This document shows, piece after piece, positions 39,754 to 62,767 of a stretch of DNA of 64,000 bases (its first letter is position 1; each line of letters starts with the position of its first letter). This DNA comes from Patescibacteria group bacterium. Lineage in GTDB: Bacteria; Patescibacteriota; WWE3; UBA101185; UBA10185. The stretch covers positions 12,299 to 76,298 of the forward strand of contig BPJL01000006.1 in assembly GCA_026004595.1 (NCBI GenBank), written 5' to 3'. The notes under the pieces are model-generated. The model did not search any database. It worked only from the letters and a program-made list of their open reading frames with translations, and was not told the DNA's origin. Position numbers and translations under genes: made by a program.

Positions 39754-41512
39754 ATGAATGAGAACCGCATCTCCAACAAGGAAGTCGTAGCTCAGCTTAA
39801 AGAGGTGCTTGCGGCCATGGATGTGAAGAATTTTAATGTTTTTAAGGTTCGAGCGTATCAAAATGCGATAGCTATACTAGATAACTTAACGGTTTCAATT
39901 TATGACCTTTGGGAAAACGGCCGACTCAAAGAAATTCCCGGTGTGGGGTCTGGTATATATTCACACCTTGATGAGTTGTTTAAAACAGGGTCGGTTAAAG
40001 AGTTTGAAGCCATAAAAAAAGGCCTTCCAGAAGGGATGTTCGGCCTTATTGGAATACGAGGAATAGGTGCGAGAAAGGCTTTCAAGTTGGCCACTGCTTT
40101 TAAACTTAACGATAGGAATACGGCTGTAGAAAAAGTAAAAGAGCACGCAGAAAAAGGAGACATTCAAAAACTTGAGGGGTTTGGTGAAAAATCCGAGGCC
40201 GATATTCTTGAGGCGATAGCGCAGTTTAAGATGACGAAGAATGAGAAACAGCGCGTCTTGTATTCAAAAGCCGAGGAAACAGTAGAAAGAATTTACACTT
40301 ATATGAAAAAGCTGGATTGTGTAGATGAAATAGAAGCTGCGGGTTCTTTTAGAAGGAAAAATGCAACTATAGGAGATCTTGATATTCCTATTGCAACAAA
40401 TGAACCGGAGAAAGCAATAGATCATTTTTTGATGTTTCCAGAGATTGATGAGGTTCTTGTGAAGGGAGATAAAAAGTGCAGCGTGGTTCTCAAAAATGAT
40501 TTGCAGGTTGATATAAGAGTTTCTACCCCCCAGGCCTACGGTGCCATGTTGCAGTATTTTACTGGTTCCAAACAGCATAACATCCTTCTTAGAAACTTTG
40601 CGCTCGCAAAGAATATGTCGTTGTCCGAGTATGGGATCAAAAAAGGCGGCGATACATACGAGTTTTCAGACGAACCGTCTTTTTATAAATTTTTGGGGCT
40701 TCCTTACATAGAACCTGAACTAAGAAACGGATCAAACGAAATAGAAGCGGCGTTAGAAAATAAACTTCCGAAGTTGATTGAAATTGGAGATATAAGGGGC
40801 GAAGTCCATACTCACACTACTGATTCTGACGGAGTTAATTCTTTGGACGAGATGGTTGCAGCGGCAATATCTTTGGGGGTACCAGTATTTGGGTATTTCC
40901 GATCACGCGCCAAGCGTTACCTCACGTGGGTATAGAGAAGTATCAGAGATAATTAAGAAGAAAAGAGAAGCTATCCAAAAAATAAATGAAAAGCAGGATT
41001 CTATCAAAGTATTCTTCGGTTATGAGGTGAACATCTTGGCAGACGCAACCCTTGGCCTACCTGACGAAATACTGGCAGAATTGGACTATGTAGTGGCTTC
41101 GATTCACACTTCCTTCAATCAAGACAGAGAGCAGATTACCGACCGACTGCTTGCGGCAATAGAGAATCCATATGTAAATATTATCGGACATCCTTCGGGG
41201 CGTCTGCTAAACGAAAGAGACCCGATAGATCCTGCTTGGGACAAGATATTTTTGGCGGCTCGAGATAATGGCAAAATACTGGAGATAAACGCCCAACCCG
41301 ACCGTCTTGATCTTCCAGACGATTTGGTGAAAGAAGCAATACAATGGGGAGTTAAGTTAGTGATAAGTACTGATGCTCATTCAGTAGATCAGTTTTCTTT
41401 TATGAAATATGGTATTTTCAACGCACGCAGAGGGTGGGCGGAGAATAAAAATATAATCAACACGTTGCCGTATGGAGATTTTGTAAAAGAAGCGAACATA
41501 CGCCTTAAGTGA
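39754..41512 (+). pseudogene. DNA polymerase X family (Pol-beta-like nucleotidyltransferase plus PHP phosphoesterase), interrupted by a +1 frameshift in G5 run 40875-40879 (pieces 39754-40935 and 40856-41512)
   Basis: Piece 1 has HhH motifs, the Pol-beta NT motif GSFRRKNATIGDLDI and PHP motif I (GEVHTHTTDSDG). Piece 2 in the +1 frame continues PHP (YQYLGISDHAPS ... ASIHTSF ... STDAHS). Removing one G restores ...AAAISLG-YQYLGISDH... Confidence 0.8.
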
Positions 41513-41569
41513 AATTATGCAAAAAACATATATAATAATATTAGTAAATTTTTGTTAAGGAGGTGTGTT

Positions 41570-42115
41570 ATGGAACTCGTATTAATAGCTGTCATAGGTC
41601 TTGTTATATTTGGTTTTATTTCTGTTTACAACTCTTTGGCGTCTTTGAAGATTAAGATCAAAGAAGCTTGGAGCCAAATTGACGTTCAGCTCAAGAGAAG
41701 GATTGATTTAATCCCCAACTTGGTTGAAACAGTAAAGGGTTACGCTTCGCATGAAAAGGAAGTATTTGAAAAAGTAACCCAGGCTCGTGCCGCTTTGATG
41801 AGCGCGGGAGATGCAAAAACAGCGGGGGAGGCAGATGTACAATTAACATCAGCACTCAAGAGCCTTTTTGCCGTAGCTGAAGCTTACCCGGAGTTAAAGG
41901 CCCAAGAAGGGTTTATCAATCTGCAGAAAGAACTTTCCGACACCGAAGACAAGGTTGCTTATTCAAGACAATTCTTCAATAGCGTGGTTAGGCAATACAA
42001 TGAAAAAATTGTTGTATTTCCGTCAAACTTGATTGCCCAGTTGTTTGGATTTAAGCAGGAAGCGTTCTTTGAGGCTGAAGAAGCTGACAAAGAGCCAGTG
42101 AAGGTAGATTTCTAA
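41570..42115 (+). CDS. LemA family protein
   Basis: N-terminal TM plus LemA signature (ASLKIKIKEAWSQIDVQLKRRIDLIPNLVETVKGYASHEKEVFEKVTQAR). RBS AAGGAGG upstream. Confidence 0.8.
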   Translation: MELVLIAVIGLVIFGFISVYNSLASLKIKIKEAWSQIDVQLKRRIDLIPNLVETVKGYASHEKEVFEKVTQARAALMSAGDAKTAGEADVQLTSALKSLFAVAEAYPELKAQEGFINLQKELSDTEDKVAYSRQFFNSVVRQYNEKIVVFPSNLIAQLFGFKQEAFFEAEEADKEPVKVDF

Positions 42116-42133
42116 TTATTTCATTGGAAAGAA

Positions 42134-42601
42134 ATGGGTAAGCACGTACTGAATGTGAAGGTTGCAGTTTTGGCGTATTTTGAGAAGGACGGCCGGATAT
42201 TACTGCAGAAGAGAAAAAATTCGGGGTGGCGTGACGGATGGTACGGACTTGTTGCCGGGCACGTGGAGAATGACGAGCCTTACAAATCTGCCTTGCGCAG
42301 AGAGGTAAAAGAGGAGGTTGGTGTTGACGTAAGGGAAGAAGATCTGGAATTTGCGCACCTTTTGCTTCTTCCCGCCAAATTGTCTGATTGTCAACGTTTA
42401 TATGTTTATTTTAGGGTAACAAAATGGGAGGGGGAACCTAGCAACGCCGAGCCCGAAAGGTGCGACGATGTTAGATGGTTTGACAAATCCTCTCTTCCTG
42501 AAAACCTGATACCTGTAGTAAAATTCGGTATGGAAAAGATGACGGCTGGAGAGATGTACAGCGAGTTTGGGTGGGAGCCCGGTTATAAAGAAAAGCTATG
42601 A
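42134..42601 (+). CDS. NUDIX hydrolase
   Basis: Nudix box GLVAGHVENDEPYKSALRREVKEEVGVDV (G-x5-E-x7-REU-x-EE-x-GU). Confidence 0.8.
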   Translation: MGKHVLNVKVAVLAYFEKDGRILLQKRKNSGWRDGWYGLVAGHVENDEPYKSALRREVKEEVGVDVREEDLEFAHLLLLPAKLSDCQRLYVYFRVTKWEGEPSNAEPERCDDVRWFDKSSLPENLIPVVKFGMEKMTAGEMYSEFGWEPGYKEKL

Positions 42602-43495
42602 ACATATACCAGCAAATAGACAAAAACAAAAGGGACACGGCAGTTATTATTGCTTTGTTTATGGTTGTTATATCAGCGATTGGGTGGTTTCTCGGTGAAT
42701 ATTTTTATGAGGGTGCTGGAGTTTCATTTCTAGCTGCCGCGCTTATATTTTCCGGAATCTCCGGGATGATTTCATACTACAATTCTGACAAAATTGTTTT
42801 GAGCCTATCCCGCGCGAAGGAGGTAAGTTTTGAGGAAGCCCCTGACTTGCACAAGCTAGTTGAAAATATGAGCATCGCCTCGGGGATACCCAAACCGAGG
42901 ATTTATGTTATAGAAGATTCCTCCATGAATGCTTTTGCTACGGGACGAGACCCCGAACACTCTGTTATATGTTTTACCACGGGTATAATCCAAAGACTGG
43001 AAAAAAGAGAACTTGAAGGTGTTATTGCTCATGAGATGGCTCACATCGGAAATTATGATATTAGACTGATGTCTATAGTTAGTATTTTGGTGGGCACTAT
43101 AATGCTTTTATCTGATTGGTTTACGAGAGGCGCATTTTACGGAGGAGATAGGAAAAGGAGTTCCAACTCAAGTTCGGGTGGAAGCATTTTCTTTTTGGTG
43201 GGGGGTGGTGTTGCTTATTTTAAGTCCGCTAATTGCTACGTTAATAAAGTTGGCAATCAGCCGAAACAGAGAATATTTGGCTGATGCTACAGCAGCTTAT
43301 ATCACAAGGTATCCTAAGGGGTTGGCAGACGCATTGGCAAAGCTGGCTATGGATAAAGAAATTTTGGAGGCGGCAAACGGGGCAACTGCTCATTTGTATA
43401 TTGTGAACCCCATAAAGATTGGTGGAGCAGTTTCAAATCTTTTTTCCACTCACCCGCCGATTGAGGATAGGATAAACCGACTTTTGCAAATGTAA
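42598..43495 (+). pseudogene. htpX: M48 zinc metalloprotease HtpX, interrupted by a +1 frameshift in G6 run 43200-43205 (pieces 42598-43284 and 43178-43495)
   Basis: Piece 1: TM helices, HEMAHIGNYD (HExxH). Piece 2 (+1 frame): LIATLIKLAISRNREYLADA ... STHPPIEDRINRL, the conserved HtpX C-terminal motifs. Deleting one G gives the contiguous ...SIFFLVGVVLLILSPL... Confidence 0.8.
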
Positions 43496-43847: not shown

Positions 43848-45282
43848 ATTAAATGAACTCACTATAAGAAGCGCTTTGGAAGGTTTGAAAAAGAGAGATT
43901 TCAAATCCGAAGATTTGGTGAATGGTTGTTTGGAGCAAATTAAAAAATATGATACGCAGATACACGCTTTCTTGAAAGTGGTTGAGGATCAAGCTTTAGA
44001 GAAGGCCAGAGAAGCAGATGTTGAAATAGTAACCAAGGGAGATACAGCTTTTATAGAAAAACCGTTGTTGGGGATTCCATACGCCGCCAAAGATAACTAT
44101 TCAACGAAAAATATTACCACAACAGCGGCATCCAAGGTTTTAGAAAATTATGTACCCCCTTTTGATGCAACCGCAATTAAAAAATTGAATGATGCGGGCG
44201 CCATACTACTGGGAAAGACAAATTTAGACGCTTTTGCTCACGGTTCTTCAACCGAAACATCTGATTTTGGAACCTCATACAATCCATGGGATCTGTCCAG
44301 GGTTCCGGGCGGATCTTCAGGTGGCTCGGCAGCCGCTGTAGCAGCCCATATGTGCCTTTTTGCTGTAGGAAGCGAGACGGGAGGAAGCACTCGGGGTCCT
44401 GCTTCGTGGTGTGGTGTAACGGGTGTCAAACCTTCATACGGACGAGTAAGTCGTTATGGAATTGTTGCAATGGCTTCGTCTACTGACAGCCCCGGGCCCT
44501 TGACAAAATCAGTAGAGGATTCGGCGCTAGTGCTTAAGGTAATGGCTGGTAAGGACCCTTTTGATGCAACATCGTCTCCCGCCGCAGTACCTGATTATCT
44601 GCACGAAGCCGAGTCTTATGATTTGCGCGGGGTAAAGATCGGACGACCTGTGTCTTTTTTTGAAATGGATCTAGAAGAGGGAACAAAACAAAAGGTTAAC
44701 GAGGCTGTAGAAATTTTTAAAAACCTCGGAGCCGAAATAATTGATGTTGATATGCTAAGTCCAAAATATTCCATCGCAGTTTATACAATTTTGCAGAGAT
44801 CTGAAGTTTCATCTAACCTCGCTCGTTTAGATGGGATTAGATATGGTAATGACCGCGTATCTTTCGGTTTTGAGGCCAAGAAAAGAATGATGCTTGGAGC
44901 GTACACCCTGAGCGCGGGGTATTATGACGCTTACTATGCTAAAGCTCAAAAAGTTAGGACCTTGATAAAAGAAAATTTTGATGAAGTTTTTAGAAAAGTT
45001 GATTTACTAATAGCGCCTTCTATGCCTTGTGTGGCTTTACCGGTTGGGGAAAGCGCAAAATCTCCCATGTTTGGGGAAATGATGGATGTTTTAAACGAAC
45101 CCGCATGTATTGCTGGCGTACCAGGAGTCAGCGTTCCATGCGGATTTGACGAGGGACTGCCAGTAGGTGTTCAAATCATGAGCAAAATGAACGAAGAGCA
45201 AAAGATTTTTGGCGCATTGTTAAAGTTTCAGAAAGCAACAAATTTTCATCTGGAAAAACCGGCGCTGATTAAGGAACAATGA
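43840..45282 (+). CDS. gatA: Asp/Glu-tRNA amidotransferase subunit A (amidase)
   Basis: Amidase signature GGSSGGSAAAVAA, catalytic K (AAKDNY) and S (GSETGGSTR). Probable GTG start at 43840 after RBS AAGGAG (43825-43830); listed ORF starts at 43816. Confidence 0.9.
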   Translation: MSKLNELTIRSALEGLKKRDFKSEDLVNGCLEQIKKYDTQIHAFLKVVEDQALEKAREADVEIVTKGDTAFIEKPLLGIPYAAKDNYSTKNITTTAASKVLENYVPPFDATAIKKLNDAGAILLGKTNLDAFAHGSSTETSDFGTSYNPWDLSRVPGGSSGGSAAAVAAHMCLFAVGSETGGSTRGPASWCGVTGVKPSYGRVSRYGIVAMASSTDSPGPLTKSVEDSALVLKVMAGKDPFDATSSPAAVPDYLHEAESYDLRGVKIGRPVSFFEMDLEEGTKQKVNEAVEIFKNLGAEIIDVDMLSPKYSIAVYTILQRSEVSSNLARLDGIRYGNDRVSFGFEAKKRMMLGAYTLSAGYYDAYYAKAQKVRTLIKENFDEVFRKVDLLIAPSMPCVALPVGESAKSPMFGEMMDVLNEPACIAGVPGVSVPCGFDEGLPVGVQIMSKMNEEQKIFGALLKFQKATNFHLEKPALIKEQ

Positions 45283-45336
45283 TGGGTTTTTTTTAATATT
45301 TTTTTTGGAACAAAAAGCGATAATACGGCTTATCGT

Positions 45337-45678
45337 GTGGTATCGCAGGATACTATGAGAAAGATAAGTGAAGAGTGGGCGAATGTTGAGATTTTATTGA
45401 AAGGAAAATCGCCTTCCCAATTAAGGCAAGCGTTAATTGTTGCCGATAAATGTTTAGATGCGGCGTTGAAAGACATTGTGCCTGGAGAGACAATGGGAGA
45501 AAGGTTGAAAAATGCTATAAGCAGATTTGACAGGTCTGCATACGGGAGAATTTGGGATGCCCACAAACTTAGAAATAGTTTAGTTCACGAAGCAGGATTT
45601 GAACCTCCGTATTTTATGATTAATGAAGCAGTAGCAAATTTGAAAGAGGGGTTGTATAAGCTTGGGGTGAGAATATGA
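45337..45678 (+). CDS. Hypothetical protein with HEPN-like Rx4H motif, inserted between gatA and gatB
   Basis: 113 aa, helical; ...DAHKLRNSLVHEAG carries an R-x4-H motif as in HEPN domains. Weak. Confidence 0.4.
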   Translation: MVSQDTMRKISEEWANVEILLKGKSPSQLRQALIVADKCLDAALKDIVPGETMGERLKNAISRFDRSAYGRIWDAHKLRNSLVHEAGFEPPYFMINEAVANLKEGLYKLGVRI

Positions 45679-47009
45679 ATGAAATGGAATTGTTAGGCAA
45701 ATATAAGTTAGTCGTCGGCATGGAAGTCCATGTCCAGCCAAAAACATCTCAAAAAATGTTTTGCGGTTGCGATGCCGACATTTGGGGTCAGGAACCCAAC
45801 ACCCGTACATGCCCCACCTGCCTGGGATTGCCGGGTGCCCTACCTGTTCCGAACCTGGAAGCTGTGAAAAAAACACAGTTGCTTGGGTTGGCCCTTGGGT
45901 GCAAGCTGAACGAGAACTCAAGATTTGATAGAAAACATTACTTTTATCCCGATCTTCCCAAAGGTTACCAAATAAGCCAATATAAAAAACCACTATGCGA
46001 AAATGGAAAGCTTCTATTAGAAAGCGGGAATTACGCTGATATAGAGAGAGTGCACCTTGAAGAAGATGTCGCGAAGTCATTTCATCAGGGGGGAAAAACA
46101 CTGATTGATTTCAATAAAAGCGGGATCCCCTTGATTGAGGTAGTGACACGCCCGTGTTTCCGTTCTGTAGAAGATGCAGTTGATTACTGCAAGAAACTAC
46201 AGGTAATCTGCAGGTATTTGGAAATAAGTGAGGCAGATATGGAAAAAGGCCAGATGAGGCTCGAAGCAAATATTTCAATACGAACGCTTGAAATGGAAGA
46301 AAAAGATGAACTGCCCCCATATAAGGTGGAAGTGAAAAATATAAATTCGTTCAAATTTATGGAAAAGGCGGTTAAAGCTGAAGTGGTAAGACAAAGGGAA
46401 ATTTGGGAGTCGGGCGGTATGCCGGTGCAGGAAAACAGAGGTTATGATGAATTCAAAAATGTGACGGTTCCTCAAAGGGAAAAAGAGGAAGCTTCGGATT
46501 ATAGATATTTCCCGGAGCCCGATATTCCCCCGATGGTTTTTGATGAAGAATACTTTTTAAATCTAAAAAAGGCGGTGGCGAGGTTGCCGCAGGATTTGAG
46601 AAAAGAAATGGAAGAAAAAGGTGTGGCAAAAGAGCAGAGTAGGATTTTGGTTGAAGTGATGGCTAGAGAAGCCGTTGAGAAGTTTAACGGGTTGGTTGCC
46701 AAAGGTGTTGAAGCAAGAAAAGCTGCCTCTGTATTGATAAATAGGAAAGATTTGTCGTTATTGGGGGTTGAAGAAATAGTTACAAGGATAAATGAGGAAG
46801 GTGTCAGAGTGTCGGATATTGAAGAAATTAGTGAAGTTGTTGAAAATGTAGTTGGGGCGAATCCGCAGGCAGTTTTAGATTATAAGAGTGGAAGGGGTAA
46901 CGCTCTTCAGTTTTTGCTCGGGTGCGTAATGAGAGAAACGAAAGGGAGATCCGACCCCCATGTGGCTTTGGATTTGATCAAGGAACTTATAAATAAAAAT
47001 GTAAAATAA
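45675..47009 (+). CDS. gatB: Asp/Glu-tRNA amidotransferase subunit B
   Basis: N-terminus LVVGMEVHVQPKTSQKMFCGCDADIWGQEPNTRTCPTCLGLPGALPVPN is canonical GatB; C-terminal YqeY-like tail. Confidence 0.9.
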   Translation: MNEMELLGKYKLVVGMEVHVQPKTSQKMFCGCDADIWGQEPNTRTCPTCLGLPGALPVPNLEAVKKTQLLGLALGCKLNENSRFDRKHYFYPDLPKGYQISQYKKPLCENGKLLLESGNYADIERVHLEEDVAKSFHQGGKTLIDFNKSGIPLIEVVTRPCFRSVEDAVDYCKKLQVICRYLEISEADMEKGQMRLEANISIRTLEMEEKDELPPYKVEVKNINSFKFMEKAVKAEVVRQREIWESGGMPVQENRGYDEFKNVTVPQREKEEASDYRYFPEPDIPPMVFDEEYFLNLKKAVARLPQDLRKEMEEKGVAKEQSRILVEVMAREAVEKFNGLVAKGVEARKAASVLINRKDLSLLGVEEIVTRINEEGVRVSDIEEISEVVENVVGANPQAVLDYKSGRGNALQFLLGCVMRETKGRSDPHVALDLIKELINKNVK

Positions 47010-47013
47010 AATA

Positions 47014-47058
47014 GGCCGCAAAGTAGAAAGATGTTTATTCTACAATGCGGCCCTGTTT
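47014..47058 (+). terminator. Rho-independent terminator-like hairpin after gatB
   Basis: GGCCGCA (47014-47020) pairs with TGCGGCC (47046-47052), followed by CTGTTT. Confidence 0.45.
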
Positions 47059-47430
47059 GAAAGGTGTTATTGCGTTATTCGGTAGATGATTTCAAGGATT
47101 CCGAGGACAACGAGCACTGTACCTATTACATCCCTGGGCTTATCCTGGGAAATCTTCACAACCGCTCAGGCGATAATCTGCAGTATGAGAAGGATTGTGT
47201 AAATCCAAGCCGGAGTAGCTGTGGCAATTATGGTTACGAAATAATGGAAGACCAAGAGAGCCGCTATTGTGAAAAGTATAAGATTACACCAGTGTACTTA
47301 TTCTAGTTATCTATCATTTTTATCTTTTGAATATTGTTAATATTAACATTCTTTACGTTTCAGGTTAATACATACCGTCCCGCGGCAAGGTTGGGTAATA
47401 TATAAAACTCAAGGTGGTATCATATACGAG

Positions 47431-53551: not shown

Positions 53552-53569
53552 ATTATTTTTTTTTGGTAT

Positions 53570-53689: not shown

Positions 53690-53764
53690 TGGTGAGGGCG
53701 GTGGGGATCGAACCCACGACACGCGGCTTAAAAGGCCGCTGCTCTACCACTGAGCTACGCCCCC
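53690..53764 (-). tRNA. tRNA-Lys (anticodon TTT), CCA encoded
   Basis: Reverse complement: acceptor GGGGGCG/CGCCCTC (one G-U), D arm GCTC/GAGC, anticodon stem GCGGC/GCCGC with loop CTTTTAA, T arm GTGGG-TTCGATC-CCCAC, 75 nt. Confidence 0.85.
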
Positions 53765-53839
53765 TTAAAACTTTCACATTATACACAACAAAACCCTGCA
53801 GTTAAATGATAAAAGCTCAGAAGATAAATTTTAATAGTA

Positions 53840-54235: not shown

Positions 54236-54319
54236 ATAAACAATATTAGCACTTCTGAAAAAAGATTACCTGGTCTGTAAACTGATGGACCTAGTTGATT
54301 TTAGCAAACTTGTTGGCTA

Positions 54320-55642
54320 CTAACTTTTTGTAACAAAACTAACGATATCACCTGCTGGGACGCTGTTCTGTTCGCCCGTTTCCATATCCTTGACGGTAAT
54401 CCTTTTATTTTTAACTTCATCCTCACCGATTATGGCCACAAATCTCACCCCGGATTTTGAGGCGATGCTTAATTTCTTTTTAAGACCCTCACCTGTGTAT
54501 AAAACATCAGCCTGTATATTGCTTTTTCTAAGATTAGCTACTAAGTCGTAAGCCAGATTTGTGTAATCTCCTAAAGGAATAACTAAAACTTTCAAAGTCT
54601 GGCGGTCAGTATATTTAAGAAGGTTATTTTCTTTCAACAGGTCAAAAAGTCTAGTGAGTCCTATCGAAATTCCCGTTCCTGGCAGTTTTTTATCTGAAAA
54701 GTACTCTGCAAGATTGTTGTATCTACCTCCTCCACAAATGGATCCGAACTCCGGATACTCAGTCAATACTATCTCAAATATTGTTCCGGTATAATAGTCA
54801 AGACCCCTGGCTATGGATAGATCTATGGTCCAGCATGATTTAGGTATATTCATATAACCTATGTTTTTAACTAGATCTTCGATTTCTTTCACCCCCTCAT
54901 CAAACGTATCGTTTGCAACATTTAACGATTTTAGTTTTTTTAGCACATCTGCTACCGACCCCGCGGAATTTATAAAATCAAGAATTTTTTCCGTCTGGTT
55001 TATATTTACACCCATTTTTTCAAAATCTTTAGCAACCATTTCTTCGCCGATTTTTTGTACCTTATCTATCTCTCGTAGGATTTCTTTTGTTTTTTTATTG
55101 AGTCCGAGTTTTTCAATGTAGCCGGTTAGTAGTTTTCTGTTGTTGATCTTTATTAAGAAGCTACCTAAGTTAAGTCGTTCAAAAGTGGTGTAGGCGGTTG
55201 CAACTATCTCGGCATCGTAGATGGGAGCTAAACTGTCCTTATCGATTATGTCCACGTCACATTGGTAAAATTCCCTGAACCGCCCTTTTTGAGGACGTTC
55301 CCCGCGAAACACTTTACCTATTTGATATCTTTTAAAAGGGAAAGACAGCTCGTTGTACCTTTGGCTTACATATCTCGCAAGGGGAACCGTAAAATCAAAC
55401 CTCAATGCCATTTCGCTGTCACCTTTTTTGAAGGTGTATATCTGCTTTTCGGCTTCCTTCCCGCTTTTTGCCAACAAAATATCAGCTTTTTCAAGCACAG
55501 GGGTATCTAACGGTAAGAAACCGCACAATTCAAAGCTTTCCCGTATGGAGTCCAACATTTTGTTAAATATAACCTGGTCGCGAGGTAGTAGTTCCATAAA
55601 ACCGGGAAGTATTGTGGGTTTTATAAAAGTTTTTTCAACCAT
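54320..55642 (-). CDS. hisS: Histidyl-tRNA synthetase
   Basis: Class II motifs: GFLPLDTPVLE (motif 1), RYQIGKVFRGERPQKGRFREFYQCDVD (motif 2), C-terminal anticodon-binding domain. Confidence 0.9.
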   Translation of the reverse strand: MVEKTFIKPTILPGFMELLPRDQVIFNKMLDSIRESFELCGFLPLDTPVLEKADILLAKSGKEAEKQIYTFKKGDSEMALRFDFTVPLARYVSQRYNELSFPFKRYQIGKVFRGERPQKGRFREFYQCDVDIIDKDSLAPIYDAEIVATAYTTFERLNLGSFLIKINNRKLLTGYIEKLGLNKKTKEILREIDKVQKIGEEMVAKDFEKMGVNINQTEKILDFINSAGSVADVLKKLKSLNVANDTFDEGVKEIEDLVKNIGYMNIPKSCWTIDLSIARGLDYYTGTIFEIVLTEYPEFGSICGGGRYNNLAEYFSDKKLPGTGISIGLTRLFDLLKENNLLKYTDRQTLKVLVIPLGDYTNLAYDLVANLRKSNIQADVLYTGEGLKKKLSIASKSGVRFVAIIGEDEVKNKRITVKDMETGEQNSVPAGDIVSFVTKS

Positions 55643-56078
55643 AGCTTACCAATTTTACCGCAGTATTGCTTTTGCATAAAGTTTATTTGAGCAAAATCAA
55701 AACTAGTGGTTATGAGCTTTTTTAATCAAACTTGGTTTTTACCTCTAAATTTGGTGGTACTGCTGGAAAAATTTTATTTGGTATCAGGATTGTAGGCGAA
55801 GATGGTAATTTTATAGTTGTGGTTGCAGCCTTCTTCCGGATGACCGCAGGGTACGCAGCTTCAGCTGGGTTTTTTATGCTAGGCTATCGTTGGGTTTTCA
55901 GAAAAAAAGGAAAATCTTATATGGTATGATAGGTTGTTTGCCACCAAGGCTTAAAGCATAGAAAGCCCTTTTTGGGAAATTTTGTTTCTGTTTTTATATA
56001 GCTTCAGTTTTGCAGCTTCCTTATCTATATACATATTTACTGTAATTAGATTTTTGTATTAAAAACCCTTTTTGATAT

Positions 56079-56106
56079 TGACAAATCAATCCTTAATGAT
56101 TAAATT
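56079..56106 (+). promoter_or_regulatory. Candidate sigma-70-like promoter (TTGACA-17-TAAATT)
   Basis: TTGACA at 56079-56084, 17-nt spacer, TAAATT at 56101-56106, in AT-rich DNA about 300 nt upstream of the 56407 gene. Confidence 0.3.
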
Positions 56107-56406
56107 ACTCTACTTATAGGTTAGGGGAGTACAAGATATAGACTTATAGTAATGTGTGCGTTTGAGTGTTGTTGCTACACACAATCGGAGATTCATATAA
56201 ACTTTGTTCTAGTGTTTTTGCCCTTCTGCCGAAAAGATATTTCATAACAGATTTGGGAGTTTTTTTCAGCCTTCGGAGAGTATGTACTAAAATATATGGG
56301 TCCTTGGTATTTGCATGAGGTTGTGTGCGGAGTGTTTTTGTTTGAAAGTATTCCGGGCACAGGCTCAATAAAGCCAACCTAAATAAATATTGAAAGGAGA
56401 GCTGTT

Positions 56407-56706
56407 ATGGTCAAGAGCCACGTCAGCCGGGATCCGGGTATATTTGAGCTGATAAACAGAAACCTGCGATTGGTGCTTAAGTTGTTAAAGGACAAACGTG
56501 TTCCTTTTCTTCTTAAGCTTTTACCAATAATAGGTGGAGTGTGGCTAATTTACCCCGACCTTATCCCGGGACCGCTGGACGATGTTTTGGTTATCTACCT
56601 CACGTTTTATGGTTTCATTGAACTGGCTCCGGATGAAGTTGTAAAAGAACTTCGTAAGGAAGTTAGTCATGGAAAGGAAAACGTGATAGAAGGCGACATC
56701 GACTAG
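56407..56706 (+). CDS. DUF1232 (YkvA-like) membrane protein
   Basis: RVPFLLKLLPIIGGVWLIYPDLIPGPLDDVLVIYLTFYG matches the DUF1232 core; RBS GAAAGGAG. Confidence 0.55.
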   Translation: MVKSHVSRDPGIFELINRNLRLVLKLLKDKRVPFLLKLLPIIGGVWLIYPDLIPGPLDDVLVIYLTFYGFIELAPDEVVKELRKEVSHGKENVIEGDID

Positions 56707-56712
56707 CTACCA

Positions 56713-56750
56713 AGAGAGAGCTTTTATATTCAAAAACAAAAGCTCTCTCT
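56713..56750 (+). terminator. Terminator-like perfect 13-bp hairpin
   Basis: AGAGAGAGCTTTT (56713-56725) pairs with AAAAGCTCTCTCT (56738-56750); no clear U-tract. Confidence 0.45.
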
Positions 56751-56818
56751 GTATCCTTAGGAATTTTGGATCTTGATCATTTTGTTTGTCCGTCCCGGCC
56801 ACTTGCGCCGTGCGGATG

Positions 56819-56929
56819 TACTTTGAAAACACAACAAGAAAGAGGTGGTTGCCCTACTTAGGTTTGCACCTTCGAGACTTTCAGCATGCTGGAAGTTTTG
56901 CAGGTGCGTAGCCTAATAAGAGGCAGCCA
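56819..56929 (+). promoter_or_regulatory. Repeated leader element, copy 1 (box A, box B, hairpin, box C)
   Basis: Box A 56819-56842, box B GGTTGCCCTACTTAGGTTTGCACC, hairpin GCACCT (56866-56871) / AGGTGC (56902-56907), box C GGTGCGTAGCCTAATAAGAGGCAGC. Same architecture as copy 3. Confidence 0.55.
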
Positions 56930-57023
56930 TATCAATAAGTGAAAGGAGTAAAAAATTGGAAAATACCTGTTTCCTAGTTTCGAATTGCCAGTAAGTCAAC
57001 CATTGAATAAAACGGAGGTAAAA

Positions 57024-57281
57024 ATGCAAACGTTAGTTAGCAACATAATTTTTTTGAGTGTGCTGGTATTCGCAGCAGCTTTGGTGATCTTTGGATTGCT
57101 GAAGTTCATCAAGGTACTTAAAGGAGAGCTCTCTGTAGGTGAGGCTCTGATGGCCATAGGCGGTGTGGTAATCGGTGCAGCAGTTGTAATATGGGCTGCG
57201 ACCGATTTCAACGGGAGCAGGATCATAATCGATACGGTTGGAAAGTGGATCATCCAGATTCTAACCGAGCCCCTAGGCTAG
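57024..57281 (+). CDS. Small 2-TM protein (VirB2/TrbC pilin-like topology)
   Basis: 86 aa from the ATG after RBS AACGGAGG: hydrophobic leader (IIFLSVLVFAAALVIFGLL), charged loop, second hydrophobic segment (ALMAIGGVVIGAAVVIWAA). Listed ORF begins at 56985. Confidence 0.5.
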   Translation: MQTLVSNIIFLSVLVFAAALVIFGLLKFIKVLKGELSVGEALMAIGGVVIGAAVVIWAATDFNGSRIIIDTVGKWIIQILTEPLG

Positions 57282-57288
57282 GTTAGCT

Positions 57289-58869
57289 ATGAAGACAGCT
57301 GCTGTTCCAACAATCCTGGTGGGCGCTCTTCTGCTTACTGGATGTGCGGAAAAACCGGATAATCTGGAGGTGTTTTTTGATTGGCGGCAAAAATTCTTTT
57401 TGCATGTTGATCAACAGACGGTAGAGCCTTGGGTAGGGCCGGTTTTAAGGCTAGCGGTAGCAGTAGCCTTAGTTCTTTGCTTACTGGTGTTGATACACAA
57501 CCTGAAAAGTGAAAGGCCTATCTGGGGTTATAATTTCATCACAGGTCTCTCAATTTTTGTAGCGATCGCTTTAGTGTATTTTTACATCCCCGCAGCTACA
57601 GCTTTTGGTGAGGCCATAATGCCCCCAGAATTAACGCTTGATAGGGTTTTTTCAGCTCTAAGGTTAGGGTTGGACGGAGGTTTGGCTGACTTGCTTGTAG
57701 GAGGCTGGGCTATAACCTTTACACTCGTTCTCCCGCTCTTTTCGGCTTTTTGGGAAATAATGATGTTGTTGGGTGCCGTTGTTGCTCTAATAGCAACAAC
57801 TTTAGCAAGAAGCATGAAAGGTATCGTTTACATTGTAACGCAGGTGTATGGATGGGGATCTTTCCTTGTTCTTTACAACACCTTAATATCGTTGATCGAC
57901 CGTTACTATCCTACATGGGATTATATGCCTGTAAAGATATTTGTAACGGCGTTCTATGTAATGGTATCTGTCACATTGCTTCTTTTTTGCTACATTGGAA
58001 TACCCTTCTTTGCAATCTCCCTCGTGCCGAGATCAGATGACGAATACAAATCATCTGGAAAGAAAAGGGAGGAAAGAATACGGGACTCCAAAGTGGATTG
58101 GGGGACTATTTTTGCTCCCATACCCATACCCAACGACTCGCCGGACGATGAGCCTGATCAAGATCGATACCATAGTAACGACAATTACGATGATGAGGAT
58201 CCTTCAGATGGTAGTATAAATCCCCAACTACCCCGGGGTCCGAGTGGTGGTGGATTGGGAGAGGTTATCGAAGCACATAAAGGAGATATCCCACCGACTA
58301 AAGTTTCTCGTTCGGAAACTTCGGAAACTAGTAATGGCGATGAACCTGATCCCAATAAAATACTTTTATCGAAAAGTTCGAGATTGGGTTCCAACATTGA
58401 ACACAAAGATTCCAGAGTTTCCGAAGAGGTTGTTGATTCTGTTGAGAACTTCCCTTCGAGTAAAGTTAAACAATTAAAAAGCTTGGAGAGTGGTTCCCGA
58501 TCTGCGGAAACAAGTCGTCCTAACCGGAACAATGGAGATTCCAACCGCCTGGAAATAGATGTCAAAAAAGACAAGCTAAAGAAAGATAAGGCCCACGTAG
58601 AATTTCTGGACAAAACCGGCAAAGTTTTGGAGGTCGTGGGTGTTGTTACCGCATCTCCTAAAGTCGTAATTTTCGGCAAGGGTGTTGAGTTAGCAGCCGA
58701 TGTGTTGGACCGTGCTACGGAAGAAGGTGCAGATACAAAGAAGGTTTTGGATCATTCTGCCAAAGAAGTAGCCAAACGGGTTTTGCGAAACAAATACCCA
58801 GACTTGGTAGAATTTGCAGTCGGCAAGGACGATCGGGACGAAAACAAGCTTAACATGGAAGGAGGGTAG
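57289..58869 (+). CDS. Polytopic membrane lipoprotein with long acidic/Ser-rich disordered C-terminal domain (VirB6-like architecture)
   Basis: Lipobox LLLTGC, about 6 TM helices, then ~270 aa low-complexity D/E/S/K/P-rich tail. Confidence 0.6.
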   Translation: MKTAAVPTILVGALLLTGCAEKPDNLEVFFDWRQKFFLHVDQQTVEPWVGPVLRLAVAVALVLCLLVLIHNLKSERPIWGYNFITGLSIFVAIALVYFYIPAATAFGEAIMPPELTLDRVFSALRLGLDGGLADLLVGGWAITFTLVLPLFSAFWEIMMLLGAVVALIATTLARSMKGIVYIVTQVYGWGSFLVLYNTLISLIDRYYPTWDYMPVKIFVTAFYVMVSVTLLLFCYIGIPFFAISLVPRSDDEYKSSGKKREERIRDSKVDWGTIFAPIPIPNDSPDDEPDQDRYHSNDNYDDEDPSDGSINPQLPRGPSGGGLGEVIEAHKGDIPPTKVSRSETSETSNGDEPDPNKILLSKSSRLGSNIEHKDSRVSEEVVDSVENFPSSKVKQLKSLESGSRSAETSRPNRNNGDSNRLEIDVKKDKLKKDKAHVEFLDKTGKVLEVVGVVTASPKVVIFGKGVELAADVLDRATEEGADTKKVLDHSAKEVAKRVLRNKYPDLVEFAVGKDDRDENKLNMEGG

Positions 58870-58870
58870 T

Positions 58871-59182
58871 ATGAGTCCCTTTTCCTTTCTTGGTGACAGT
58901 AAGATGAGATCGATCAGATATAAACTGTTCGATCATTCTTACACTATCCTGCCGGTTTGGGGTGTGATCGGAATCTTATTTGTTTCCGGTCTGTTTCTTT
59001 ATTTCGGCGGGCTCCGTTGGGTATGCCATGGTACTTCGGGAATAGTTTTTGTTTGGGTAGTTTTCACTCTGCTCAATAAAGTCCTGAAAGCTCGGGCATA
59101 CAAAAAAATCAGCGAAAAGAGCAGACGTGACCAATCCGAGGTAGTTGTTACCTACCTTTCGGATCCCCCGTACCGCTCCTAG
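58871..59182 (+). CDS. Small 2-TM membrane protein (VirB3-like size and topology), immediately upstream of the ATPase
   Basis: 103 aa from the ATG after RBS GGAGGG; helices ILPVWGVIGILFVSGLFLYFGGL and GIVFVWVVFTLL; basic C-terminus. Listed ORF begins at 58814. Confidence 0.5.
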   Translation: MSPFSFLGDSKMRSIRYKLFDHSYTILPVWGVIGILFVSGLFLYFGGLRWVCHGTSGIVFVWVVFTLLNKVLKARAYKKISEKSRRDQSEVVVTYLSDPPYRS

Positions 59183-59191
59183 AAACTTGAA

Positions 59192-59227
59192 AGGATAGGG
59201 TTTTTCCCCAACCCTATCCTTTTCTCT
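59192..59227 (+). terminator. Rho-independent terminator
   Basis: AGGATAGGGTT (59192-59202) pairs with AACCCTATCCT (59210-59220), followed by TTTCTCTC. Confidence 0.6.
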
Positions 59228-59349
59228 CTTTCTTGTTGTGGCTCTTTTTGAGTTTTCAATATATTTGATTATTCAAAAAGAGGGTACGAGAAACAAATAA
59301 TTTGCAAAAACATCATAGATGTTGGCACTTTGAAAACACAACAAGAAAG
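59225..59349 (+). promoter_or_regulatory. Repeated leader element, copy 2 (partial: 16-mer TCTCTTTCTTGTTGTG plus box A only)
   Basis: 16-mer at 59225-59240, identical to 62821-62836. Box A ACTTTGAAAACACAACAAGAAAG at 59327-59349, identical to copy 1. Confidence 0.5.
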
Positions 59350-59476
59350 CTAAGAAGAGATTATGTTTTTGTTGAGCAGGGCACCTAAAAGAGCCTGAAC
59401 ACTGTCGGGTTCTTTTGGGTGTCATGCTCAATCAGGGCTTGAACATAATAACTAAATCAATAAGAAAGGAGTTGAG

Positions 59477-61417
59477 ATGGATCTGAAAAAACTTTTATTT
59501 CCGGGAACAGATGCAAGATTGTTACCTGAATCCTCCGTGTTTTTAAACGCGGTAACCAGGGAAGAGACAATTAGTGCTCGAGAGCTCCTTGGTGTGACGA
59601 TCCACCCCGTAAAGGGAGGTGCTGCTGGTGTCAGAAGTACGAATGGAGGTGCTACGCGTGTAATCGCATATCACCAAAGCTCTAAATTCACCGATGGCAG
59701 CGGTTTGGATATACGGCAGGCTTACAAGTACACTTCTAACTTAACAATGTTGCTTAGGCTGGTTAAGCACTACCCCGCCTCTTTTGTAAGGCATGTTCAG
59801 AACGAAAAGGATGGTGAAAAAACAGCCCGTACCGAATTTCTCGATGATGTCATGGAGTGGGCACTTCCTCGGAAAGGAAAGATTAGCGGTCATGATCTGT
59901 TACTTTGGGGAGATTTAGGAGCAATCATTCCCGAAAATAGGGAAGAGACGGCATCGTTACATGGAAAGATTGTTTCTTATCTTCAAGCCGCGTCTGTACT
60001 TCGGAGTGTAATTTTAAGTACCCCAATGTCTCTGGAAGATGCAAAGTACGACTTGATCACAAAAAGCTATGATGCAGTTTGGTATGCTGCACCCAGAAAA
60101 GTGTTTTGGTACCCTGATTTTTATTCGCTACCGGACTCTAATTTGGCATACGCTTTTTGGAGTGGTGTGGTATCTCCTGAGAATATCCGTGAACTAATGG
60201 ATATGGGAGATATACTGCTCTACACGGAGGTGGTCGAGGGTTATCTTTACGCGACCGCTATACTTCGTGTGGTAGTGCCGATTAGAAACGGAACTGCTGA
60301 CTTTTCCTCTGAAACCTCCCAGCTGATGAAACTGGGCAAATGGGAGAGGCGGACAGGTGCGGATCTGAAAAAAGCATTTCAGGCCTTTGTTCCAGGAAGT
60401 GCACCACCTCCGGCATGGGACAGGCACTCAGTACACAAGCCGAACTACGTTCTGTCGGCCATTCAAAAGTCTCTAAAGAATGTTGGGGATAAGAACGGAG
60501 ATACTATGAGCGGTTTCATAGATGACGAGCCGTTCTTTCTCAACAACCAGCTTCGTCCCAGTCGTATCTACTTAGGGCCCAGCAAAGTGGGAAAGTCTAC
60601 CCTTGCTGCAGCACACGTTTTGCAAACCAATGGCTGTAGGGTCATATGGATGCCACTGACAGCGGGTCAATTTGAATCCGCACCCCATTGGGTAGAAAGA
60701 TTCGAAGGAACTGTAATAAACTTAAATCTTCCGGATGCATATACACTTCATAGACAAAACGATAAGCAAAACGGAACCAGGCCTACACGTGTCGATATGG
60801 TGGCCAAACAAGAGGAGTTGCACGTTGAGGACAAAGAAGCGGCCGAAAAGACAGTAGCAAAGCTGGAGGCTGAGTGGTATCAGCGGGGTAAGATTGTAGG
60901 GTTGCCGCTTACGTTTCGTGTTAAGTCAGGCGACACTGTACGATTGCTGAACTGGTACAACCATTTCTTAACTGCTATGAGGGAGGCCTGGAAAAGGTGG
61001 TACGAGCTTACCGGAGAACTTGCCACCATCGTTGCAGACAATTTCAGTGCGTTGAAATTATCGGACAACGACCCCTTGTTAGGTGAATTGCCTGCGGCAA
61101 TAGGGGAGAATCTAGGACTAAACCTAGCTTGGTTGGTATCTAACGGTCGAAATATTGGCCTTTCATGCTGGATTACGACTCATAGCAAGGAAGATCTTGA
61201 TCATATAAGCACCGGCCTATTCAACCAGTTTGGATTGTGCTTCAACCTCAAACACAATGATTTCACTTTTTGTGAGGTCAGCCAGCCGAAAGATCGAGAT
61301 GTTTTGGTACCAAAGCTCTATATAAAGCTTCCTTATCCCATCAAACGCGTTGTTGAAAGACGCGAGCCGAACCTGGATGAACTGCCGTGGACGCAAAAAG
61401 AAGTTTCCGCGGACTGA
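59477..61417 (+). CDS. FtsK/HerA/VirB4-like P-loop NTPase (divergent)
   Basis: Walker A GPSKVGKST (60575-60601), then CRVIWMPLTAGQFE (the hhhhD-x-x-GE-Y spacing seen in VirB4/HerA/FtsK ATPases). Walker B-like TIVADNF (DN not DE) and arginine-finger/TQ-like LSCWITTHS. No TM; RBS AAAGGAG. Confidence 0.6.
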   Translation: MDLKKLLFPGTDARLLPESSVFLNAVTREETISARELLGVTIHPVKGGAAGVRSTNGGATRVIAYHQSSKFTDGSGLDIRQAYKYTSNLTMLLRLVKHYPASFVRHVQNEKDGEKTARTEFLDDVMEWALPRKGKISGHDLLLWGDLGAIIPENREETASLHGKIVSYLQAASVLRSVILSTPMSLEDAKYDLITKSYDAVWYAAPRKVFWYPDFYSLPDSNLAYAFWSGVVSPENIRELMDMGDILLYTEVVEGYLYATAILRVVVPIRNGTADFSSETSQLMKLGKWERRTGADLKKAFQAFVPGSAPPPAWDRHSVHKPNYVLSAIQKSLKNVGDKNGDTMSGFIDDEPFFLNNQLRPSRIYLGPSKVGKSTLAAAHVLQTNGCRVIWMPLTAGQFESAPHWVERFEGTVINLNLPDAYTLHRQNDKQNGTRPTRVDMVAKQEELHVEDKEAAEKTVAKLEAEWYQRGKIVGLPLTFRVKSGDTVRLLNWYNHFLTAMREAWKRWYELTGELATIVADNFSALKLSDNDPLLGELPAAIGENLGLNLAWLVSNGRNIGLSCWITTHSKEDLDHISTGLFNQFGLCFNLKHNDFTFCEVSQPKDRDVLVPKLYIKLPYPIKRVVERREPNLDELPWTQKEVSAD

Positions 61418-62767
61418 TAGGGTGTGCCATTATCCCCGGCATCCCAATAATGCTTGTGATCTGCTTATTAAGTCTGATCCTAGCATTGGGATACATGCAC
61501 GATACAGACCCTAAGGCATACAACGAATACATCGGAGATGTCTTGGGTCTGTCCGGGGGGACTTGGTACACCCTCACACCGGACGATGAAGAGCTAATTC
61601 TGGAACTGGGATTTGATCCGGCGGTTGTAGCCAACGAAATTATGGCCAACCGCTGGATCAATGAAAATGGCGGAGAGATAGACCTTGGTATTCAGTTGGC
61701 CATTTTGGAAGGAGAGTCCAAGGCGGGAAAAAACATGGGAACATGCAACGGATTACTTTCCGCTGCGAAATTTTCAAGGCAGGAGGTAGAAGCAGCAGAG
61801 TGGTTGTTAAGACGCTGGAGCGCAGCCGGAATACGAGACTGGTCAGAAATTGCACGGAAAATGGTTACGCCTGACTACAGTGACTACACAGCACACTGTT
61901 CAGCCGGCGAGATAGGACCTAACGGTATTCTTCCGTCGACAGGTGTCACTATATGTAAGTATGGGCTTTCAGAGCACCCTAACCCATTGGTGCGTTCCTG
62001 CAATTTTTTTGATGAAAGGGTTGCGCCTTATGGAAAAAATTGGTGGTTAAAAGCTATCGGATACAAATCCACAGCTTCAAAATCCGATAATTTTGAAGCT
62101 CTGTACGGTTGGAACCATAGCGAGTTCTATAGGACACAGTTGCTCGAAAAAGCTGATTATTACAATAGTTTTTTTCGACAATTGGAAAGGGAATCCACAG
62201 GAAAACGAAATATATGTTTTCAAAGGAACATTGTTGCAAAGTATCGCAGTCAAATTCCTGAAATATGTCGGTCTTCTGTCGGCAGAGGTTTACGCTGCGG
62301 GTCCTGACGAGGGCGCTGGAGAAGCCTTGCCCATTGATGGTTTCGTCCACCCTTACCCCGGGGGTTTTCTTTGTGGATATGGTTTCGGAGTCCCTGTTGC
62401 GAATGGTATTCACTGGGGGGTAGACCTGTGTTTTGGTTCTCCTTGGAAATCCGCTCCCATCTACGCGATGCACTCCGGTAAAGTTGCCTTTGCAAGGTAT
62501 CTTTCCCCCAGCGAACCATTAGCGGGACAATGGTGGATTTCCGGAAATGTAATCGTGATTGAAGGAAAAGATGCTTCCGGAAATACAATCTGGACAGCTT
62601 ACGGCCACGGCCTTAACGGTAGTATGGAAGTTGAGGTCGGAGATGTTGTAGAGAAAGGCCAGAAGATCATGATGTCGGGGTCAACAGGCTTTTCTTCGGG
62701 TATTCACCTTCACCTGGCTATGAAAGTTAACGGTCGGTGGGTGAACCCCGCAACATACCTAAAATAA
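61387..62767 (+). pseudogene. Membrane-anchored bifunctional peptidoglycan hydrolase (SLT-like lytic transglycosylase plus M23 peptidase), interrupted by a +1 frameshift (pieces 61387-62307 and 62093-62767; probable site T7 run 62169-62175)
   Basis: Piece 1: TM (IIPGIPIMLVICLLSLILALGY), SLT-like ILEGESKAGKNMGTCNGLL (Glu-Ser catalytic pair). Piece 2 (+1 frame): M23 motifs HWGVD, YGHG, GIHLHLAM. Confidence 0.7.

Follow-up and report, generated by a model that had tools for sequence, protein, structure and literature searches.

Single-base indels that are confined to homopolymer runs and fragment conserved genes are a familiar product of unpolished long-read assemblies, whether built from PacBio CCS/HiFi or Nanopore reads. 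Genuine change in run length is known from the phase-variable poly-G/poly-C contingency loci of Neisseria, Haemophilus and Campylobacter, in which tracts are typically 8 bases or more and a one-base change flips the reading frame. Full-length protein can also be obtained across a +1 change by recoding: prfB (RF2) relies on programmed +1 frameshifting, and in reduced endosymbiont genomes poly(A) frameshifts are rescued by transcriptional slippage, which in known cases takes A/T runs of about 9 bases or more.

Here we analyse a 64,000-nucleotide stretch of a WWE3 (Katanobacteria, CPR) genome, hereafter the window, in which four conserved genes on the forward strand are each split at a short homopolymer run. 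We place at about 88% the probability that the four frameshifts are one-base homopolymer over-calls in the consensus and not part of the organism's DNA. The locus resembles known long-read errors in its probable origin in a low-coverage, long-read-only metagenome, in +1 changes that match the insertion bias of CCS, and in the presence of an intact allele elsewhere. Nothing essential differs, the minor departures being the short G runs among the sites and the clustering of the sites in one third of the window. With contingency loci the window shares the flip of frame by one homopolymer base, an envelope protein (the M23 hydrolase) among the targets and what may be two tract lengths in the reads of one sample, but repair and protease genes of housekeeping type are also among its targets. 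As in prfB and the endosymbiont cases, a small genome would need a +1 change to produce a conserved protein at full length, yet here there is no conserved site or stimulatory context, the runs are too short and 99.9%-identical strains need no recoding.

Four conserved genes are split at homopolymer runs

The first-pass annotation had reported three genes split at runs of G5, G6 and T7, each with its downstream half in the +1 frame, and no other split genes in the window. A sequence check reproduced the three runs to the base and confirmed the +1 offset of every ORF pair, and removal of one run base produced unbroken ORFs of 585, 298 and 459 aa, with repaired proteins that are 100% identical to database orthologues. 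A fourth split gene exists, truncated by a T8 run at 45287–45294; the common direction of the events and their location in homopolymers hold, and their number is four instead of three. Base-level alignment with 99.4–99.9%-identical contigs puts each indel of the first three genes within its named run and at no other point of that gene, and all four indels that split genes relative to near-identical contigs lie within the G5, G6, T8 and T7 runs. Runs of the G5/G6/T7/T8 class make up 1.18% of the window, giving P of about 2e-8 for 4/4 indels falling there by chance. The downstream halves of the split genes carry no additional stops, and no decay is seen.

The DNA polymerase X gene (39754..41512, + strand; PolX core and PHP domain by Pfam) is represented by ORFs 39754..40935 and 40856..41512, with HHH_8, HHH_5, palm and thumb on the upstream half and PHP on the downstream half. 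Its G5 run at 40875–40879 holds one surplus G and reads G4 in contig L008 and in the three other covering assemblies. Without that G, the 585-aa product is 100% identical to a database protein (P0001) over 585 aa; its matches number more than 7,000 PolX proteins, which carry names like 'DNA polymerase/3'-5' exonuclease PolX' at source. Once repaired, the gene encodes HHH_8, palm and thumb followed by PHP in one polypeptide, as in bacterial PolX with a PHP domain, and the PHP motifs span the junction: HTH (residue 352) precedes junction codon 374, and SDH, HPSG and TDAH follow it. A strain-specific SNP at 40882 is synonymous in the repaired frame only. Neither the PolA protein nor the truncated PolX protein encoded in the window had an exact database match.

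An M48-family (HtpX-like) zinc protease gene, assigned by Pfam, occupies 42598..43495 (+ strand) as ORFs 42598..43284 and 43178..43495, and its G6 run at 43200–43205 holds one surplus G relative to G5 in 8/8 other assemblies. A single Peptidase_M48 profile is divided between the two halves, with positions 3–96 on the upstream and 117–184 on the downstream half. The repaired ORF of 298 aa equals the gene calls in all sibling contigs and unites within one M48 domain the HExxH motif (HEMAH, residue 145), located before junction codon 201, and the downstream Glu of EYLAD after it, which we take to be the metal ligand of M48 proteases.

The third gene encodes a membrane-anchored M23 peptidase with a conserved N-terminal domain (61387..62767, + strand; ORFs 61387..62307 and 62093..62767; Pfam and homologues), split at a T7 run at 62169–62175 with one surplus T relative to T6 in 3/3 informative assemblies. 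The repaired 459-aa protein aligns over its full length with 13 homologues of 429–469 aa, among which the junction falls within a variable linker, and a matching database protein (P0121) is contiguous across the junction. In other assemblies the gene is likewise contiguous at this point and is called at 408–458 aa depending on the chosen start. Of three SNPs in the downstream half, two are synonymous in that half's frame. SRR6488477 reads G7 rather than G6 at position 61555 of the same gene.

This protein had been labelled as SLT plus M23, of which the M23 part is well founded. Peptidase_M23 (PF01551, E 7e-16) covers the downstream half, the zinc motifs HWGVD (HxxxD) and HLH (HxH) of M23 peptidases lie downstream of the junction, and a PDB profile search covered only the M23 part, with matches such as lysostaphin and LytM at E 2e-9. 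The SLT assignment found no such support: the N-terminal half has no Pfam match, and its best SLT hit, SLT_2, reaches E=0.11 and 12.2 bits where the cutoff is 24.3, and aligns only with the final 27 positions of the profile. PDB sequence and profile searches with the N-terminal domain were also without match, and its AlphaFold (AF2) model was poor (pLDDT 51, pTM 0.38). The motif CSAGEIGPNGILPST is similar to AGAMGxxQFMPST, the MltB-type signature.

The fourth gene lies between gatA and gatB at 45282..45678 (+ strand), was recognized from sibling gene calls and tblastn, and is truncated at codon 5. Its T8 run, with one surplus T relative to T7 in 9/9 other assemblies, turns ATG GGT TTT TTT AAT into ATG GGT TTT TTT TAA. 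Sibling contigs call a 131-aa gene at this position, and the JGI annotation gives 132 aa. By tblastn, the protein is present in seven more distant WWE3 genomes at 60–76% amino acid identity (E 1e-50 to 1e-69), with alignments that span all 131 aa; there was no match at an eighth WWE3 locus, which stops before the gene position. A Pfam search with the 131-aa protein matched no family.

We scanned the window for further split genes by deleting or inserting one base in every run of at least 4 bases and looking for ORF fusion, which returned many candidates. Same-strand overlapping ORF pairs from the scan were rejected as normal neighbours. MurG/FtsQ (16542/17614) and IleRS/LytR_C (24414/27223) were set aside by Pfam, and a 136-aa protein/SecG pair (12295/12627) and a pair of 526-aa and 103-aa proteins (57289/58814) were set aside by sibling-contig gene calls. 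LexA, UvrB and DedA in the first 3 kb of the window are intact.

Other assemblies and relatives carry intact genes

Comparison with orthologues in sibling genomes, which the first-pass annotation had proposed, bears on each of the four sites. In nine other run-level assemblies from 99.4–99.9%-identical strains, the run is one base shorter at every covered site and the genes are intact. Coverage varies from site to site, and with n as the run length in the window, the n−1 allele accounts for 4/4 covering assemblies at 40875, 8/8 at 43200, 9/9 at 45287 and 3/3 informative assemblies at 62169. Between 2953 and 37878 the window has zero indels relative to any assembly. A literature search on the other run accessions returned no paper that gives their platform or habitat; the near-identical JGI contig was not present in the metagenome contig scan.

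Eight WWE3 genomes at about 70–77% nucleotide identity extend the comparison. In all eight, PolX and HtpX are each encoded in a single frame throughout, and 7/8 carry an intact 131-aa gene. The G runs themselves are missing from most of these relatives: the PolX site is a Gly codon that is mostly GGT and without a run, and the HtpX site has GGC, GGA, GGT or GGG codons with G3 as the longest G run. As Gly codons at the two sites are mostly GGT, GGA or GGC in relatives, the G runs are recent synonymous states and not conserved slippery sites.

HiFi contigs end inside the four runs

DRR290133 is a metagenomic PacBio HiFi run from a hot spring. Its Logan contigs match the window at 100.000% identity over 2953–30563, 40876–43204, 45288–47961 and 53729–62174, and a further contig over 48533–53746 matches at 99.94%, with its only three mismatches in a terminal tRNA repeat. 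These contigs start or stop inside all four runs at the n−1 boundary, retaining G4, G5, T7 and T6. Contig L127 starts at 40876 with GGGG and the right flank and runs to 43204, where GGGGG closes it after the left flank; L113 starts at 45288 with T7 and the right flank, and L118 stops at 62174, its last bases being the left flank and T6. By comparison, 179 comparable runs are crossed unbroken. Only six contig ends lie in runs, four of them at the frameshift sites, a coincidence with a chance probability of about (6/185)^4 = 1e-6.

Logan contigs are built at k=31 and k-mers seen once are dropped, so that at about 5x coverage any disagreement among reads terminates a contig. From the logic of the de Bruijn graph, the contig ends indicate that DRR290133 reads disagree on run length at the four sites. 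An A6 run in a ribonucleotide reductase gene (23088..23093, + strand) behaves in the same way, with L103 ending at 23093 and L100 starting at 23088, each with the full A6, which implies A6/A7 disagreement among reads. Here the window consensus is correct, as three other assemblies also read A6. An A7 run at 55902..55908 (+ strand) presents the opposite case. Five other assemblies read A6, and the longer run shifts the C terminus of a small RDD-fragment ORF (55732..55929), both versions of which match only RDD profile positions ~64–135 of 137; L118 crosses the run unbranched with A7, and the difference is a fixed strain difference rather than an error. Homopolymer-length strain differences at 53556, 53604, 55902, 56069 and 56260 are unbranched in DRR290133.

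Sequencing source and origin of the surplus bases

The study that matches DRR290133 (Kato et al. 2022) sequenced on a single Sequel II cell, ran ccs at >Q20 and assembled with metaFlye 2.8.3, with no polishing described, and its sole WWE3 MAG is KatS3mg101 at 5.668x coverage. We infer that the window derives from KatS3mg101 or from another assembly of the same reads; the texts covered do not themselves tie DRR290133 to Kato et al. 2022 or KatS3mg101, and the MAG has a GC content of 39.7% compared to 41.4% for the window. Homopolymer miscalls of Sequel II CCS lean towards insertions, as documented for A/T runs of 15–25 bases (PMC11878640).

These observations suggest a simple course of events. 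A WWE3 genome would have been assembled from DRR290133 HiFi reads at about 5–6x and without short-read polishing. The true runs would be G4, G5, T7 and T6, over-called by one base in some CCS reads; with few reads, the assembler consensus may have retained the longer call, and each surplus base would then put the downstream part of a conserved gene in the +1 frame. The window shows the marks of long-read homopolymer error, with one-base indels inside runs, shorter runs and intact genes in other assemblies, a HiFi source, low coverage and no described polishing, the last two on the inferred link between run and MAG. Disagreement among reads is visible indirectly, through the contig ends. Four errors in 64 kb correspond to about Q42, a usual level for long-read assemblies of low coverage that have not been polished.

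Some features fit over-calling less well. Two of the four sites are short G runs, unlike the A/T runs of the CCS benchmark, and longer runs (T9 at 53556, A8 and T8) are unbranched, so that errors would not simply track run length. All four sites lie within 40.8–62.2 kb, three of them within 4.4 kb, which at a uniform rate has P of about 3%. Such clustering would be explained if coverage dropped locally or if a single poor read crossed the three close sites; with a read N50 of 10.5 kb, individual reads extend over all three.

Alternative explanations

Disagreement among reads could also reflect real variation, in a Katase WWE3 population that holds both n−1 and n alleles through replication slippage, perhaps with weak mismatch repair, and from which the assembly sampled the frameshifted alleles. 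We consider this improbable. Contig ends do show two run lengths at the four sites, against 179 other runs without a branch, T9 and A8 among them; true strain differences in homopolymer length lie nearby (53556, 53604, 55902, 56069 and 56260), and the G7 of SRR6488477 at 61555 falls in the same M23 gene. However, real variation would require that four conserved genes within 21 kb each hold a frameshift at intermediate frequency and that SNPs show no matching heterogeneity, as contigs are continuous across strain-specific SNPs. All four changes are +1, as is the CCS error bias, and the tracts are short (G5, G6, T7 and T8), missing in relatives and of one identical length across nine other assemblies. 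Given coverage of about 5.7x and the removal of singleton k-mers, errors in reads suffice by themselves to end contigs and would yield the same signature as the two tract lengths implied within DRR290133 reads. The slippage-prone or phase-variable tracts that the first-pass annotation had offered as an alternative fare poorly on the same grounds: contingency loci have long, strain-variable tracts, whereas the runs here are 5–8 bases with a single length per site in the nine assemblies. Were the variation real, PolX, HtpX, the 131-aa protein and the M23 hydrolase would either have recently acquired loss-of-function variants or be switched on and off stochastically. A further form of the idea, to which we likewise give little credence, is a hot-spring WWE3 with weak or absent mismatch repair and hypermutable short homopolymers, in which cells lose and regain the four proteins and the G6/G7 difference at 61555 is a further example.

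Fixation of slippage mutations, by which the Katase strain would have lost all four genes as genuine recent pseudogenes, is very unlikely. CPR genomes are reduced, and the window strain does carry real fixed non-coding homopolymer indels relative to others, but contigs would then cross the longer runs as they do at 53556, 55902 and 56260 and instead stop at the n−1 boundary in 4/4 cases, which contradicts the pseudogenization raised in the first-pass annotation. Neither the uniform disruption nor the downstream decay of a true pseudogene is observed; apart from the shifts, the protein sequences agree fully with those of intact orthologues, and the four genes are conserved across WWE3. Recoding, by which +1 ribosomal frameshifting or slippage during transcription would carry expression past a real surplus base, has in our judgement hardly any chance of being correct. 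All four shifts are +1 and sit at runs that could conceivably allow tRNAs to re-pair or the polymerase to slip, and at 45287 a stop codon directly follows the run. Against this, near-identical strains and all relatives use one frame without the surplus base, and the contexts TTG GGG GTA, GTG GGG GGT, GGT TTT TTT TAA and AGT TTT TTT CGA share no motif. Three of these four contexts have no stop or pause codon, and the stop after 45287 stands alone; unlike in prfB, the shift site is not conserved. The runs, at 5–8 bases and half of them G, are also shorter than those of known transcriptional slippage.

Implications

Single-base insertion in sequencing or assembly, which the first-pass annotation had favoured, is the explanation supported together by the n−1 alleles, the contig ends, the low coverage and the bias of CCS, and on this evidence we attribute the disagreement on run length to read error rather than to real polymorphism. 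The window thereby carries a data-quality flag of about one homopolymer over-call per 16 kb; if the rate were uniform, about 50–80 frameshifted genes would be expected across the genome. K-mer contig ends from the same reads offer a cheap pointer to consensus positions with read disagreement, and in the window they separated artefacts (4 sites) from true strain-specific homopolymer differences (at least 5 sites). Claims of gene loss or pseudogenes in this CPR genome, and in other low-coverage HiFi-only MAGs of the same study, should not rest on single-base frameshifts. For the biology the four frameshifts carry no significance: intact PolX, HtpX-like, 131-aa and M23 genes are almost certainly present in the organism.

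Homopolymer runs divide four genes in the window

The first-pass annotation had described three genes, each divided by a +1 frameshift at a homopolymer run, and all three runs are present: G5 at 40875–40879 in PolX (39754..40935 and 40856..41512), G6 at 43200–43205 in an HtpX-like M48 protease (42598..43284 and 43178..43495) and T7 at 62169–62175 in an M23 peptidase (61387..62307 and 62093..62767). Each pair of open reading frames (ORFs) shows the +1 offset, and removing one base restores uninterrupted ORFs of 585, 298 and 459 amino acids, respectively, as had been proposed. We placed the junctions by base-level comparison with near-identical DNA because ORF overlap alone could not place them. 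Runs of this class number about 124 in the window and make up 1.18% of its bases. The claim that no other gene is split was mistaken, as T8 at 45287 divides a fourth: the extra T converts ATG GGT TTT TTT AAT into ATG GGT TTT TTT TAA, and a 131-amino-acid gene is lost. Four other overlapping same-strand pairs (MurG/FtsQ, IleRS/LytR_C, the 136-amino-acid protein with SecG, and the 526- with the 103-amino-acid protein) proved to be ordinary neighbours. LexA, UvrB and DedA genes are intact in the first 3 kb.

Pfam analysis shows complementary PolX halves, with HHH_8, palm and thumb upstream and PHP downstream, and a Peptidase_M48 profile split between positions 3–96 upstream and 117–184 downstream. 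The shifts part the catalytic motifs HTH from SDH/HPSG/TDAH in PolX and HEMAH from EYLAD in the M48 protease, so the genes would be inactive as they stand. In the third gene, Peptidase_M23 lies in the downstream half and the N-terminal half has no Pfam match. The PolX, M48 and M23 labels hold, but the earlier label 'SLT' for this N-terminal half is not confirmed, as SLT_2 (E = 0.11) falls below the family cutoff. The N-terminal domain (61495–62175) is highly conserved, has at least 70 invariant positions among 14 homologues, in stretches including EGES, HCSAGEIGPNGILPSTG and RVAPYGKNWWL, and has no significant Pfam or PDB match in sequence and profile searches. AlphaFold predicts an all-helical domain with low confidence (pLDDT 51), a model too poor to serve as a query for fold search.

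Near-identical assemblies carry intact genes

Searches with repaired PolX matched PolX proteins in their thousands, and the nearest of those with names are from candidate division WWE3 or Patescibacteria; GTDB genomes with PolX at 78–85% amino acid identity are WWE3 MAGs, and one match (P0001) is 100% identical over all 585 amino acids. Exact-protein look-ups led to contigs of ten near-identical run-level assemblies: JGI metagenome 3300029893 (contig Ga0246236_1000002, 768 kb) and Logan assemblies of SRR6488467, SRR6488468, SRR6488477, SRR6488497, SRR6488498, SRR6488500, SRR5011273, SRR5011275, SRR28264341 and DRR290133. Across 2953–37878 the window has no indels relative to any of them, and several are 100.000% identical to it over 6–20 kb. 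Beyond 38.5 kb, each assembly other than DRR290133 is one base shorter at every frameshift site it covers, with G4 at 40875 (4/4), G5 at 43200 (8/8), T7 at 45287 (9/9) and T6 at 62169 (3/3). PolX (585 amino acids) and the M48 protease (298 amino acids) are intact in all, and the sibling M23 gene is contiguous through the junction, called at 408–458 amino acids depending on start choice.

Other run-length differences also occur. SRR6488477 (contig L117) has G7 at 61555–61560, in the N-terminal region of the M23 gene (codons ~57–58), versus G6 in the window and three others; its M23 call is only 408 amino acids, and either the variant is a genuine natural frameshift or this assembly is in error. 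Window-specific intergenic T8 runs at 38619–38626 (T9 in six other assemblies) and 62889–62896 (T7 in three), over which no DRR290133 contig was retrieved, are either consensus errors or real strain differences.

Contigs from DRR290133 break inside the runs

DRR290133 contigs are 100.000% identical to the window over 2953–23093, 23088–30563, 40876–43204, 45288–47961 and 53729–62174, and 99.94% identical over 48533–53746, where the only three mismatches lie in a terminal tRNA repeat. The match takes in all strain-specific SNPs, an in-frame insertion of 3 bases at 61591 and five window-only run lengths (T9 53556, T6 53604, A7 55902, T5 56069 and T7 56260). These five run-length differences are accordingly real and fixed in the population. 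A7 at 55902 (A6 elsewhere), unbranched in DRR290133, is a genuine strain difference that alters the last residues of a small ORF (55732–55929; 65 versus 73 amino acids). The match of this ORF to the RDD profile is confined to the C-terminal half (positions ~64–135 of 137), and the ORF may itself be a gene remnant.

The same contigs break off inside all four frameshift runs: L127 starts at 40876 (GGGG then TACC) and ends at 43204 (GGT then GGGGG), L113 starts at 45288 with T7, and L118 ends at 62174 with T6. We infer that, in a k = 31 de Bruijn graph, k-mers common to the window allele and the allele one base shorter end exactly at these breaks; had all reads the window's length, the path should continue. 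Logan drops k-mers seen only once, so at low depth any read disagreement ends a contig. DRR290133 contigs cross 179 comparable runs without a break and end inside only six, four of them the frameshift sites (chance ~1e-6). The fifth is A6 at 23088–23093 in the RNR gene, an A6/A7 disagreement at which the window kept the correct length. The sixth departs from this pattern: L134 starts at 48533, within the PolA gene, with only three Cs of a C5 run (48531–48535; C5 in the window and all other assemblies), possibly because the reads disagree among three lengths, because some of them carry a substitution, or because coverage lapses over 47962–48532.

Sequencing or assembly error probably explains the frameshifts

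Together these data uphold the earlier preference for single-base insertion artefacts, with shorter runs and intact genes in other assemblies and DRR290133 contigs that stop in the runs. We put the probability that all four frameshifts are sequencing or assembly artefacts at roughly 0.88, the reads being seen through contig ends. There would have been five read-level disagreements, each of a +1 allele against the ancestral length, with four of the five +1 alleles entering the consensus. Two papers describe DRR290133, as metagenomic PacBio HiFi and as hot-spring reads. The run probably belongs to the study of Katase hot-spring sediment by Kato et al. 2022 (PMC9671151), whose single WWE3 MAG, KatS3mg101 (Table S3; 5.668x coverage, 18 contigs), is the probable source of the window. 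That study used one Sequel II SMRT cell, ccs reads >Q20 and metaFlye 2.8.3, and its text gives no polishing step. In a Sequel II benchmark, CCS reads miscalled homopolymer length with an insertion bias (PMC11878640), and indels in such runs are the recognized reason why gene calls are fragmented in long-read assemblies (PMC9262707).

At four errors per 64 kb, the consensus stands at about Q42. The errors are clustered, with three within 4.4 kb and none in the first 38 kb, and longer runs elsewhere are clean. The clustering could stem from a drop in local coverage or from a single poor read covering the three neighbouring sites, and real within-population run-length heterogeneity keeps a small probability. 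Fixed pseudogenes are more doubtful still, as the contig ends and the lack of decay both contradict them. In eight WWE3 genomes (~70–77% nucleotide identity), PolX and HtpX each continue in a single frame, and the glycine at the two G-run sites is mostly encoded by GGT, GGA or GGC; 13 M23 homologues are contiguous at the third junction, a variable linker; and the four run contexts share no common motif. Conserved programmed frameshifting is thereby excluded, and recoding, which is not conserved, is scarcely credible. The same data also argue against contingency loci.

Strain variation and a gene between gatA and gatB

Sibling strains (JGI contig, SRR6488500, SRR6488477 and SRR6488497; contigs L107, L110, L120, L121, L123 and L124) carry a 44,277-bp element between 37878 and 38490, the 3′ end of tRNA-Gly(CCC), for which the window is a 611-bp empty site. 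Minus-strand tRNA-Thr (38161–38235) and tRNA-Gly(CCC) (38490–38564) lie within 37878–38564. The element encodes a 529-amino-acid serine recombinase, an 871-amino-acid TraG/VirD4-like DUF87 ATPase, a P-type ATPase and a PLD-like protein, and its far end seems to hold a second copy of about 14 bp from the tRNA 3′ end. It resembles an integrative and possibly conjugative element, here in a CPR genome. Several assemblies match the window at 100% identity over 18–36 kb, but the JGI strain differs from it by 13–28 SNPs per 2 kb in 48000–54000 and 58000–60000 (for example, in the ClpB gene, 49707–50285). DRR290133 contig L134 confirms these SNPs as real, and their mosaic of blocks points to tracts of recombination among close WWE3 relatives.

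The fourth split gene (45282–45678; 6302–6697 in near-identical sibling contig L008) lies between gatA and gatB and overlaps both through ATGA-type junctions. Its product matches no Pfam family and is conserved at full length, with 60–76% amino acid identity, in seven more distant WWE3 genomes; an eighth locus ends before the gene. The 131-amino-acid protein may be an uncharacterized GatCAB amidotransferase operon partner in this lineage.
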